A stretch of 38,953 nucleotides of DNA, taken from contig NW_021835711.1 of the NCBI RefSeq assembly GCF_006345805.1, positions 1-38,953 on the forward strand. Direction: 5' to 3'. The DNA is from Octopus sinensis (taxonomy: Eukaryota). The position numbers and the translations under genes are program-made. Of this stretch, positions 3,551 to 38,180 are shown one piece after another (the stretch's first letter is position 1; each line of letters opens with the position of its first letter). The notes beneath the pieces are model-generated. The model was not told where the DNA came from. It worked only from the letters and a program-made list of their open reading frames with translations, and ran no database searches.

Positions 3551-3889
3551 TATTGTGGCTATGAGTTTTTGACTTTTATTTCTAGCAGTGCTGATGCTGA
3601 ATAGCGCCCTCAGTCGCTTTACTGGAGTGTATATTTTTGCCCTTCGGTTGAAAAAGTGCTGACAATTTTAATCTGAAAAGGGTAATTTATTTTAACCCAA
3701 GGCACCGGTGAGACCTACAGAAGAGCGTTGTTGTAAGCGCGAAAGCATTAGTGATCTGGCTTACTAGGTGCTTAGGGAACTCACCACCCTTGTCAGTAGA
3801 TAAGACCGTCCGTTATTGTGGTTATGAGTTGTTTTGATTCTTATTTCTAGCAATATTGGTGTCGAATAGCGCCCTCAGTCGGTTTAGTG
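3551..3889. repeat. Imperfect ~75 bp direct repeat pair (3551-3624, 3814-3889) flanking a degenerate HHR-like motif; possible PLE 3' end
   Basis: Both units read tattgtggYtatgagtt...ttatttctagca...gaatagcgccctcagtcg. Between them is ccta-CAGAAGA-gcg..cgc-GAAA at 3714-3768. Confidence 0.55.
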
Positions 3890-4220
3890 ATATATATGTG
3901 TGTGTGTGTGTGTGTGTGAGCATACTTTTGCATATTCACATAAATATATATATATACGACCTTGAACCCACAAGAGTAAACAAGAGAGACAGAAACAGGC
4001 AGAATCAAGGAAAATGTCCCTTGTATTTGAACACTATGCAAATATTCTTTAAAAAATACTTTTCTTATCATTTTTCTAAACTTAATTGTTTGCCATACTT
4101 ACAGTTGAAAAAGTCTCAATGACTGAAACCGGTACTGAAATGTTTTTTATAAAATTATTTTAGCATTTTCTACCTTGACTTTTTTCCATATATATATATA
4201 CACATATTTATATATATATA

Positions 4221-4690
4221 GGCGTGTCTCTTTGGTCAGAAGCTTGCTTCCCAACCACATGGTTCCGGGGTCCGTCCCACTGCACTGCACCTTGGACATG
4301 TGTTTTCTACTATAACATTAGGCCAATCAAATCCTTATGAGTGTATTTCGTAGACGGAAACTGAAAGAAGCCCGTCGTAAAATATATATATATTAATATA
4401 TAATATATATATATATATATAATATATATATATATATATATATATATATATATATATTATATGTCTGTCTATCGAAATGTGTGTGTGTCTTTGTGTCTGA
4501 GTCTGTCCGTACTAACGCGCCACTCGTTGAAAACCGGTGTTGTGTTTAAGTAACTGTGGTCTGGCAAAAAGACCGATAGAATAAGTACCAGGTTTAACAA
4601 ACCTAATCACTGGGTCGATGTATTCAATCAAAAATTCTTCAAGGCACTGCCCCACCATTGCCGCAGCCAAATGACTGAAACAAATAAAAT
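4221..4690 (+). mobile_element. tRNA-headed SINE, family 2 (Octopus-type, with internal microsatellite)
   Basis: Head agcttgcttcccaaccacatggttccggg; core gtagacggaaactgaaagaagcccgtcg; internal (AT)n/(GT)n; tail gaccgatagaataagtac...aaatgactgaaacaa. These blocks recur in many copies in the window. Confidence 0.85.
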
Positions 4691-4754
4691 ACTAATGTGT
4701 GTGTGTGTGTGTGTGTGTGTGTGTGTGTATGTGTGTGTGTATAATATTAGTCTT

Positions 4755-5327
4755 TCATCCTTTTACTTGTTTCAATCACTTGACTGCAGCCATGCTGGTT
4801 TTTAGCCTAGTACTTATTCTATCAGTTTCATTTGCCGAACGCTAGATTACGGGGCATAAACACACCAACATCGGTTGCCAAGCGATTGGGTTTGGGGAAA
4901 AACCGACAAAATGATACACATATACACACATACACACATATACTATGGGTTTCTTAGATCTTTTCACTTTAATTGGCAGATCGAGAAATTAATTTTTTTG
5001 TAAGTAAACACTTTCAAACTTCGGACACTGGTAGAATGTGTCATATAAAACATCTTTTACTCTTAGCTTTGTTGAGAAAAGTTTCTATTTACGAGGTTAT
5101 TTCGTGTTAAAGTTGTCGTATTTTGGTAATTTTAACCAATCAATGACATGCATTCAGCTGAATAAAATTATTGCTGTTGTTTGTCAACAACAACTACCGA
5201 TGAAAGTGAAAAAATCCGGCTTCTTTCAGTTTCCGTCTACCAAATCAACTTACAAGGCTATGGTCGGTCCGAGGCTATAGTGGAAGACCCTTCCCGAGGT
5301 GCCATGCAGTGGGACTGAATCCGGATG
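4755..5327 (-). mobile_element. SINE family 2, interrupted by a MITE
   Basis: Reverse complement of the family 2 tail (4755-4955) and of the head/core (5218-5327: ttctttcagtttccgtctaccaaatc...gtgggactgaatccgga). Confidence 0.85.
4956..5217. mobile_element. Non-autonomous hAT-like MITE inserted in a SINE
   Basis: TIRs agatcttttcacttt / aaagtgaaaaaatcc (13/15 match). 8-bp target duplication ggtttctt (4948-4955) / ggcttctt (5218-5225). The host SINE resumes cleanly after it. Confidence 0.75.
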
Positions 5328-5674
5328 CATCTAATAATGTATGTGAATCTTCTAAAGGATATATGATCATACGTTCCTCTTATGTTTTTTTTTTTTGACT
5401 TTTTTGTTTTTTTTTTAATTTAAAAGCCACTAATAATTTCTACTCTATAGGTTCCATGCGCACTGAAGAATGTGACTGTTATATTTGAATTGTTAACTGA
5501 CCCATAAGTATACTTCTTGTGTATCGTAATGTTTTGGTAGTTTGTGAGGTTGTAGTGGTCGCCACCCGGTCAGTTTAACAGTTTAATTTATTATTTAAAA
5601 GTTGTTTCTCTTCTGGCTGTTTCTTTCGACCATATCTTTTTCTTATATTTTCTTTTTTGAACAAATGTTCTTTT

Positions 5675-34839: not shown

Positions 34840-35976
34840 TTATATATATATAATATATATTATAAATATATATATAATATATATGATATGGATTGTATAG
34901 ATATATATATATATATATATATACATATATATGTTGTGTAAATATATATATATATATATATATATATATCATATAATATGTATGTGTTATATATATATAT
35001 ATATAAATTATTATATATATATATAATATATCTATATACATATATGTATGTGTATATATATAAGATATACTAGATATATGTATGTATATATATATAGACA
35101 TATATCTGTATATATATATATATATAACATATATATGTATGTATAGTATATATATATATACAATTATATGTATGTGGTATATATAAATAACATATATATG
35201 TATGTATATATAATATACATATATATGTATGTAATATATATAGATATACGATATTATATGTATGTATAATATATTAGATATATATAATGTATTGTATTAT
35301 ATATATATCATATACATATATATGTATGTATATATAATATATATATATATCTCTACCATATACATTATATATGTATGTATCTTCTATATATATCATATAT
35401 ATGTATATATATATACATATATATGTATGTATATTATATATATATACATATATATGTATGTGTATATATATATATATATATATATATCACATATCTATGG
35501 TATGTCTATATATATCTAATACTATATATGTATGTATATATATATATACATATATATGTGTGTATATATATATACATTATATATGTATGTATATTATATA
35601 TATATATATACATATATATGTATGTATATATATATATATATATACATATATATGTATGTATATATATATATATATATAATACATATATATGTATGTATAT
35701 CTATATATATACCTATATGTATGTATATATATATATGTATGTATATATATACATATATATGTATGTATATATAATATATATGTATGTATATATTAATATG
35801 TAGTATATATTACATATATATGTATGTATATATATATATATACATATATATGTATGTATATACATATACATATATATGTATGTATATATATATGTATGTA
35901 TACATATGTATATATATACATATATATGTATATATATATATTAATACATATATAAGTATATATATATATATATATA
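34840..35976. repeat. Long (AT)n/(ATGT)n low-complexity tract
   Basis: Direct reading; recurring unit tacatatatatgtatgtata. Confidence 0.95.
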
Positions 35977-36170
35977 TGAATAAAAAATGGAGTTAACGCA
36001 GGTTTAAAATAAACAAGTTACAACATCTTTACTTGGAAGATTTTTGCTGCCCTGGTAAATACTTATTTATTTTTCCGTGTTAATTGTTAACAAGGTAAAA
36101 ATACACTCATCTATATATATATATAATATATATATATATATATATATATATATATACATATATATGTATG

Positions 36171-36579
36171 TAAATATATGAAAGAATGGAGTTGAACCGA
36201 CGAATTACAAAATTCCTTTATTTCGACATATGTTTCGAAGGCTGCATATTCCTAATTGCGAAGGAATAAGGAGTTTATTATGCCGCTTTCTCATCAGGAA
36301 AAGCAAGGAACTTATGTCAAATCAAGATGCACAAAATACTTTTAGATGACTGCTCACACGGAGCCATAGTGATTGTCACCATGGGCTCCGTGTGAGCAGT
36401 CACATCTAAAAGTTTTTTGTGCATCTGATGTTGACATAAGTCCTTGCTTATCCGATGAGAAAGCGGCATAATGTACTCCTTATTCCTTCGCAATTAGGAA
36501 TATGCAGCCTTCAAAGCATATGTCGAAAATAAAGGAATTTTGTTAATTCGTCGTTCAACTCCATTCTTTCATATATTTA
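36171..36579. repeat. ~200 bp-arm fold-back palindrome of PLE-like family D
   Basis: Arms 36171-36372 and 36376-36579 around a 3-nt loop (ttg), with many single-base indels between the arms. Confidence 0.9.
36221..36301 (-). ncRNA. Type I hammerhead ribozyme, family D (canonical core, GUC site)
   Basis: Minus strand: UUUC-CUGAUGA-GAAAGCGGCAUA...UAUGCAGCCUUC-GAAA-CAUAUG-UC-GAAA. Long stem II (10/12 pairs) and palindromic stem III. Confidence 0.8.
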
Positions 36580-37559
36580 TATTTTTTAAAAAATACATAC
36601 AAATTTCCACACGAAAGCACTAACTTCAAACGAGTCTTCTCTGATGTGAATTGCTACAGGTATCGGTTAACCGAATTATCCATAACAAGATAATTCATTC
36701 AACTACTCAATATTCATATGTATGTATATATATATATATATTATATATATATATTATATATAATTCATAATAAAAGGGCAAACGAAAAATTTCTAATGCG
36801 AAATATGCCGAAAAATTGGACATATTGTCCATTAACCATATATTTTTTCACAATATGTCCAATTTTGTCCAATGTTTCGGCATATTTGGCATTAGAACAT
36901 TTTTGTACTTGCCCTTATTTATGAATTATATAAATTTAACCTTTAAAAGTATTTTTTTAATATGCTGGCCATTGATAAAATTTTGGGGGAAAAAGAAAAG
37001 AAATGCTATCCTACATTAGATATATATATAATATATATATATAATATATATATATTATATATATGATATATAATATATATATATATATATATATACATGC
37101 ATATATACATACATATATATATGTAAAAAAAATACAAACTGGGACAGAAACGCAAAACATTTAAAAGACGATACAAAAAACACGGACGGGACATTCGAAG
37201 CCTTCAATATTCAGTCAAGAACCGGATCATCCTAGCAATTTCGACTGATTAATCTTGAGATTGCTCCGATCTGGCCAGTGGCCAGCCACAAAGGAAAGGC
37301 TAAGCCAAGCGCATTAGATTCCTTGGAAGAAAGCCTCGAATGTATACAAAACAAGGACGCAAAAACGGACGTTGTTTCACGAATAAGAATACAAAAATAC
37401 ATAAAAGCAATAATGATAATAATAACAAAGACAGGACGTTACAGACAGGCGTCTTCGACAGGACGAGTAAACTTTGAGCTGGCGTGTTAGAAAAGTGCCT
37501 TAGGGCAGAGAGAAAAAATGTGTCTTGCCACGACAACTGCTAAGCAGGAAAGGCCGGCA

Positions 37560-38022
37560 AATATATATATAGTAGTATATATATAAGTAGTATATATATA
37601 TATATATATATATATATATATATATATACGATATAGTATATAGATATCTATATATATATAGTATATATATATATATATATTATATATATATATATATATA
37701 TAGTATATATAGTATATATATAGATATATATATATATATATATATATATATATATATATATATATATATTATATAGTATATATATATAAGATATTAGTAT
37801 ATATATATATATATTTTATATATATATAGTATATATATATATATTATATATAGTATATAGATATATATATATATATATATATATATAAATATATATATAT
37901 TAATACATATATATATATGCATATATATATATACATACTATATATATACATTACATTATATCTATATATATATATATATATATATATATATATATATATA
38001 TAAATATATATATATAGATAGT
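37560..38022. repeat. (AT)n tract
   Basis: Direct reading. Confidence 0.95.
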
Positions 38023-38180
38023 ATACCGGAGTAAATACATAAATGTGAAACAAGGTGGAAAAAAGAGTACTCAGATACCAGTGGTAGAGTAATATGATTT
38101 ATTTTAAGCAGCAGAAAATTCAACAAAATGTGTTACTCTGAGTTTCTCGTTGCCGTTCATCAGACAGTTTTTGCTAGAAT
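38023..38180 (-). mobile_element. PLE-like short element family B, second copy, with HHR at 38130-38167
   Basis: Near-identical to 27701-27852. The HHR core is intact, with one stem I mismatch (ACAC for ACAG). Not folded back. Confidence 0.75.

Follow-up and report, generated by a model that had tools for sequence, protein, structure and literature searches.

The 38,953-nt contig NW_021835711.1 of Octopus sinensis (assembly GCF_006345805.1), analyzed in full and here called the window, has a GC content of 33.7% and contains many microsatellites. Short repeats of four families, A to D, carry hammerhead ribozyme motifs along it, and a further family, E, is hammerhead-like (Table 1). The motifs belong to the minimal type I hammerheads and sit roughly 80-190 bases ahead of the 3' ends of the repeats, and in all of families A to D the hammerhead lies in sense near the 3' end, with the core about 115-185 nt from it. 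These repeats are very probably tails of Penelope-like elements (PLEs), belonging to a minimum of four and probably to five families, that were copied into TA microsatellites, likely by target-primed reverse transcription. All ten motifs listed in a preliminary description of this DNA were found again in place. Its figure of about 10 motifs in 39 kb holds as a count of motifs but not of independent events, which number at most seven insertions when A2/A3 are counted once and B1/B2 and D1/D2 are taken as head-to-head pairs. Its list of families is right for A to D and omitted family E at the start of the described span. The presence of at least four unrelated families was confirmed, as no significant common sequence is found among A to E (best pairwise local alignments with p of about 0.05 or higher, 200 shuffles).

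Table 1. Hammerhead-bearing repeats and associated segments in the window.
Feature	Position	Strand	Description
E1, family E	3432..3625	.	- strand motif 3432-3530 (long stem III, core CUGACGA) fused to + strand body 3517-3625
E2, family E	3697..3889	+	motif 3697-3795 (U4 to A in core), body; 3' end at (AT)4(GT)n
Family A fragment, 64 nt	5675..5738	-	head-to-head with A1; self-BLAST, 92-95% identity
A1, family A	5814..6040	+	about 17 nt family leader, hammerhead 5832-5882 (core G3..C8), 3' body; end without (AT)n
D-related fragment	21887..21960	-	only 3' half of hammerhead; 3' end at (TA)n
C1, family C	22884..23073	-	hammerhead 22972-23008 (U6); flanked by (TA)n on both sides
Low-copy flank co-duplicated with A2, outside family A	26998..27146	+	inverted copy 28233-28381, 144/149 identical
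A2, family A	27147..27338	+	hammerhead 27148-27198 (core G3..G8); 3' end joins (TA)n
B1, family B	27704..27851	-	Hydra-type hammerhead 27808-27845, hairpin 27746-27769, 3' end at (TA)n
B2, inverted head-to-head with B1	27852..27928	+	hammerhead 27858-27895; 77/77 identical to B1, last 71 nt absent
A3, local inverted duplicate of A2	28043..28232	-	hammerhead 28181-28231
C2, family C	34244..34398	+	hammerhead 34270-34307 (U6); (TA)n on both sides; 88.3% to C1
D1, family D	36181..36375	-	hammerhead 36221-36301, long stem II; AT tract at 3' end
D2, head-to-head with D1	36376..36569	+	decayed hammerhead 36448-36528
B3, independent family B copy	38026..38174	-	hammerhead 38130-38167; B1's 5' start; 97.3% to B1

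All four families show the type I architecture with a palindromic stem III and a U-H cleavage site that had been described for them. Family A has a 7-bp stem I, an additional G after A9, a 5-bp stem II, the palindrome AAUAUU and U17; its core reads GUGAAGA in A2 and A3 and GUGAACA in A1, so that G3 is present in both independent insertions, opposite C8 in A1 and G8 in A2/A3. In family B a perfect CUGAUGA core is combined with ACUC-A-GAGU, A17 and a weak stem II (an A-A mismatch, 2 bp and a GCAA loop). Both family C copies carry U at position 6 in a CUGUNGA core, together with an additional A, a 4-bp stem II, ACGU and A17. D1 has a perfect core, an imperfect stem II of 54 nt, ACAUAUGU and C17, and the decayed D2 is missing U4 and G12. 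A canonical CUGANGA core with GAAA is found in 4 of the 10 motifs (B1-B3 and D1), the others being changed at position 3 (A), at position 6 (C) or by decay (D2). For stem III, pairing with a second copy was computed at -0.2 to -7.4 kcal/mol and no hairpin was formed, in agreement with the dimer-type stem III proposed earlier.

A hammerhead descriptor was composed post hoc, when the motifs were already known. With one core mismatch tolerated it detects 8 loci in the window, versus a mean of 0.82 (standard deviation 0.85, maximum 3) in 60 block dinucleotide shuffles of the window. Six of these loci are motifs already listed and two are chance-like singletons, and four of the ten listed motifs (B1-B3 and D2) escape the descriptor because of a weak stem II or decay. 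Among the Rfam matches listed (150 of 178) there is no hammerhead, those listed being microsatellite or palindrome noise. A descriptor that was relaxed and tuned after inspection, two chance-like loci and no Rfam hammerhead among the matches listed is what chance matches in AT-rich repetitive DNA might give. However, the probability of this explanation is negligible: the shuffles never reach 8 loci, the motif recurs at the same position in four repeat families and that of family B matches a published one.

The connection to PLEs, which had been proposed in general terms, is now specific for family B. Outside stem-loop II, B and Hydra-2_Amil agree by eye at 29 of 30 positions (12/12 before it and 17/18 after it), and a CTC...GAG hairpin and then (C/T)ACT, 39 nt further on, are seen by eye in both. 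Similar hairpins occur in the tails of Hydra-2_Ajap and Hydra-1_Crog, and the B hairpin at 27746-27769 (-) folds as such (z -1.9). With the Hydra-clade PLEs B has in common stem I, the core, the odd-length ACUC-N-GAGU stem III, the cleavage base, the downstream hairpin with its spacing, the distance of about 130 nt to the 3' end and the (TA)n target, which is listed for 26 of 27 Hydra families, one of them from octopus (Craig et al., 2021, PMC8557442). It differs from them in its stem II, which has just 2 bp after an A-A mismatch, and in the open reading frame (ORF), which is not attached in the window; the octopus family Hydra-1_Obim has a different hammerhead and is not the same family. Homology, not physical linkage, ties B to the Hydra clade, and B is likely a tail from one of its elements. 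Inspection by eye showed no match of A to E with Naiad_Obim, Naiad_Ovul or Hydra-1_Obim at their 3' ends, and five motifs from A to E gave no exact string in the available part of the Craig et al. supplement, in which line breaks can mask matches.

A and C fit the published consensus of the minimal hammerhead in the U-rich flank, G10.1-C11.1, the palindrome, the AU-rich 3' side and the extra base at 9/10.1, although the extra base of family A is a G and lies outside the consensus H. D has the G-C pair only, and B carries the Hydra-type mismatch. Like the metazoan PLE hammerheads, those of A to D are of type I with a palindromic stem III, and the window likewise contains multiple unrelated families with mostly single motifs and some opposite-strand pairs; unlike them, D has a stem II of 54 nt, and the palindromes of A and D are 6-8 nt long instead of the usual 4. 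Judged from sequence, A, C and D fit the minimal PLE hammerhead, and a Hydra-type homology anchor was found for B only. Minimal hammerheads in PLE repeats occur in thousands per genome and in many families, mostly as single motifs; some lie on opposite strands 100-700 bp apart, and their activity is low even as dimers (Cervera and de la Pena, 2014, PMC4209133). In cephalopods, 235 Rfam hammerheads are reported from the giant squid (PMC6962438), and PLEs of 190 families make up 6.83% of the O. vulgaris assembly (PMC13282606). The abundance and diversity noted in the preliminary description had already been described for PLE hammerheads (PMC4209133, PMC8557442) and are no surprise. The phenomenon is known; the families are new. 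A literature search for them brought up, in the available sources, only Craig et al. (2021) and the giant-squid count, and unsurveyed supplements and the Zenodo O. vulgaris library may hold their consensuses.

Read in hammerhead sense, 8 of 10 copies, or 6 of 7 independent events, have their 3' end no more than 15 nt from (AT)4+, and in family B all three copies end within 9 nt of it. Only 4.8% of window positions are that close, and among SINE-like (short interspersed element-like) control repeats 2 of 12 copies are, at either end. Most copies thus adjoin (AT)n, as had been noted. The 3' ends were placed by eye from masked self-BLAST, and for this reason the test is partly circular. The controls belong to three SINE-like repeat groups (2916-3068, 4233-4379, 4566-4689, 4799-4943, 5218-5323 and 6408-6555, with further copies at 6684-6804, 7428-7589, 11696-11890, 16979-17081 and 24778-24924). 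A CTCC word stands no farther than about 10-15 nt from the (TA)n junction at the 3' ends of A, B, C and D.

Several copies have an inverted partner at their 5' end (B1/B2, D1/D2, A1 with its fragment, and E1). The identity of A2 and A3 is 97.4% along 341 nt, of which 149 nt are upstream flank, and since this low-copy flank was duplicated along with the element, they represent one insertion plus a local inverted duplication. The whole segment 26998-28381 is a 1.4-kb imperfect inverted duplication with flank, A and AT tract on either side of the B palindrome. It likely arose in a single foldback event, with part of the right arm deleted, and the A2/A3 duplication is plausibly part of this same foldback, centred on B1/B2. 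D1 and D2 form a 90.8% palindrome at 36168-36582 (self-BLAST). Such near-perfect palindromes in B and D, the large inverted duplication and two palindromes resembling miniature inverted-repeat transposable elements (MITEs) without hammerheads in the window would agree with foldback or MITE-like DNA elements in which palindromes mimic hammerheads. We regard this as very unlikely indeed, because B3, C1 and C2 are single-arm copies, the arms are asymmetric in B2 and the A1 fragment, and B matches a PLE tail.

For the PLE tails we propose that a reverse transcriptase/GIY-YIG protein encoded elsewhere would nick AT-rich DNA and that priming near the RNA 3' end would lead to the copying of the last 150-250 nt of uncleaved RNA into (TA)n. 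Head-to-head pairs would arise by priming on both strands or by template switching. As the ten copies retain the core and the part of stem I upstream of the cleavage site, the RNA that was copied was likely uncleaved. In Anolis, the PLE protein was shown to nick AT-rich DNA, to extend both of its strands and to insert RNA that is uncleaved, and hammerhead mutants insert normally (PMC11167929). Poseidon of Anolis carolinensis thus resembles the proposed process in its AT-rich targets, the extension of both strands and the uncleaved RNA template; in Poseidon, however, the ORF begins inside the hammerhead, whereas frames beginning there in B and D stop after 18 and 29 codons. For PLEs, (TA)n targeting has been described, and so have copies truncated at the 5' end, where an inverted copy adjoins (Craig et al., 2021, PMC8557442). 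As stem III can pair only between two molecules, a tandem parent or a trans dimer would be required for cleavage. The window copies are predicted to be mostly inert because dimers in cis are impossible: same-strand pairs of one family are at least 10.3 kb apart, and opposite-strand pairs would anneal to each other.

Family A was followed further in four public contig sets aligned to 26750-27340 (11,928, 17,931, 3,788 and 636 contigs); small-share runs among X10-X20 outside these sets are given no weight. In run X1 the summed depth is 47-149 over 27010-27129, 22.5 in unique flank and up to 4.0 million from 27147 on, where summed contig depth differs from copy number and is used solely as a sign of very high abundance. 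This very high abundance is seen in more than one of the labelled organisms. An ORF remnant had been considered for the 150 nt that precede A2/A3 and was rejected, since contig depth shows them to be low-copy flank. Contigs extending beyond 27147 have about 17 nt in common in three runs (172, 167 and 91 contigs) and then diverge (agreement about 0.5), a 5' edge read from short contigs and from the top loose ends listed (766 others). The A1 leader has the same letters as these loose ends in three runs, which suggests a fixed start of family A about 17 nt before the hammerhead. Six among the 15 joints listed link the 5' edge of family A to the opposite strand (runs X1 and X2), an arrangement like that of the head-to-head pairs. 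Metagenome contigs, searched with DNA patterns of A and C, and prokaryote genomes and viral contigs, searched with that of A, gave 0 matches.

Contig variants register only about 30 nt or more from the aligned end, and the core of family A falls in this blind zone. A reading of the core from contigs was rejected: the variant-free positions 27155 and 27160 are no evidence, because the CpG sites 27165-27168 show no decay although their partners decay. In the visible half of the hammerhead, loop II varies from G to C (66%) and to T (26%), a stem I variant (19% in X1) preserves the pairing as U-G, and GAAA and the palindrome have no variant at 3%.

The preliminary description relates such hammerheads to PLEs and to non-autonomous retrozymes. 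Non-LTR (non-long terminal repeat) retrozymes would be tandem units of 150-450 nt, cut by the hammerhead to monomers, circularised and re-inserted. The unit size fits (150-270 nt), known families include dispersed monomers (Li et al., 2026, preprint 10.64898/2026.07.22.740005), and a run guessed to be RNA has 636 family A contigs, which is not proof of transcription. The animal retrozymes are also short, ORF-less and PLE-derived with a type I hammerhead (PMC7229834; Li et al., 2026). However, they are tandem and their hammerheads are canonical with a loop 1-loop 2 contact (PMC7229834), whereas the window copies are single or inverted, with minimal hammerheads. The window contains no tandem arrays, the closest same-strand copies of one family are 10.3 kb apart, the copies are not permuted at the cleavage site, and only one joint among the 15 listed "goes back". 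A retrozyme origin is distinctly improbable, and the label is not supported.

A refinement of the PLE-tail reading is that all families are self-standing SINE-like mini-elements with fixed 5' ends which borrow PLE proteins, and not randomly truncated PLEs. The shared leader of A1 and the contigs, after which they diverge, is consistent with it, as is the identical first base of the independent insertions B1 and B3. The derivation of retrozymes, often monomers, from the pseudo-LTRs (pLTRs) of PLEs (Li et al., 2026) also speaks for it. Family A itself probably acts as a short non-autonomous element whose fixed start lies just ahead of the hammerhead. On the other hand, the start lies about 65 nt ahead of the hammerhead in C1 and 27 nt ahead of it in C2, that of the D-related fragment at 21887 lies inside the hammerhead, the contigs allow only the limited reading described above and a shared start could reflect a strong stop of the reverse transcriptase at the folded hammerhead. 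As a statement on all families we hold the refinement to be possible, at somewhat less than even chances.

Some results weigh against the reading of these repeats as ribozyme-bearing PLE tails. Whole elements of B, C and D fold no better than shuffles (z -0.4 to +1.0), and the 3' ends of A1 and D2 are without (AT)n. Stem II of family A shows uncompensated CpG decay (3-7%), no two-sided compensatory change was seen in its visible hammerhead half in the public contigs, and its palindrome, though invariant, does not stand out, since many positions outside the ribozyme do not vary either. The antisense frame 28089-28388 over A had no protein relatives that could be found, and the comparison of B with Hydra was made by eye against published consensuses and not computed. 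No PLE domain and no GIY-YIG domain (Pfam) was found in the 17 scanned of the 59 window ORFs of 90 or more codons, but a missing PLE ORF is expected for truncated copies. A weak Pfam RVT_1 match at 30583-30921 (-) (E 1.2e-4, below the cut-off) lies within a decayed reverse transcriptase fragment at 29800-30950 (-), which is likely a remnant of a LINE (long interspersed element) and not of a PLE. A direct partial tandem forming a pLTR is also missing in the window. The description of an ORF-less population is appropriate for the window only, and perhaps for family A; the closest published relatives of B encode ORFs. Taken together, the PLE link, the dimer-type stem III, (TA)n targeting and the unrelated families of the earlier interpretation are supported, whereas the retrozyme label is not, and the occurrence of many unrelated families is no surprise.

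E is probably a fifth hammerhead-like family. Both copies are old; the long stem III folds as a monomer (z about -1.9), a G-C to A-U change distinguishes E1 and E2 in outer stem I, and the cleavage-site register fits cleanly in neither of them. The ribozyme part of E1 has the opposite orientation to its body. PLEs of fungi and protists also have type I hammerheads with a long stem III (PMC4209133), whereas the host of E is an animal.

Further elements were observed in the window. Two D-related fragments, at 21887-21960 (-) and 35979-36075 (-), have the 3' end motif of D before (TA)n, the first with half a hammerhead and the second with none. A non-microsatellite element of 430 nt between AT tracts (37130-37560) has a 16-nt stretch in common with the C1 leader; it was rejected as a hammerhead family, having just a decayed C-like core on the - strand. 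An inverted pair at 25164-25390 and 25603-25851, with arms of 58 and 34 nt, surrounds AT/GA microsatellites and has a third copy near 26100-26158. The MITE-like palindromic elements without hammerheads lie at 13482-13978, which has an internal 35-nt tandem repeat, and at 36757-36932.

The cores of A (G3) and C (U6) as found in the window are predicted to be weak or dead, and the ribozyme activity of both families is doubtful. The Anolis PLE hammerhead is inactivated by C3G and regains part of its activity with C3G/G8C (Frangieh et al., 2024, PMC11167929), and changes at position 6 give low activity (Perreault et al., 2011, PMC3088659). A literature search found no natural G3 or U6 hammerhead core, although Lunse et al. 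(2017) may list such variants; the natural core variants reported in the available part of PMC4209133 include U3-A8 and neither G3 nor U6.

As it stands, the result is of little consequence: a class that is already well described gains four or five hammerhead families, and there is a way to classify short repeats that probably carry the annotation unknown or SINE. A candidate protein-binding signal is the hairpin behind the B hammerhead, which is conserved in three Hydra tails from the literature. A high-copy family A with a dead or swapped core would matter more, because the role of the hammerhead in PLEs is unresolved (PMC8557442; PMC11167929). If G3-C8 is the norm of family A, it would be a natural core swap that is unreported in the available parts of the literature searched. 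We consider it unlikely, at perhaps one chance among a few, that A is a SINE-like mini-PLE which starts just before the hammerhead and has spread to at least tens of thousands of copies whose core, with G3 opposite G8 as the standard inactivating change, cannot cut. If this is true, the dead core of A together with U6 of C would be natural evidence that the hammerhead fold is kept for binding or stopping the reverse transcriptase and not for catalysis, and the function of the PLE hammerhead would become directly testable.

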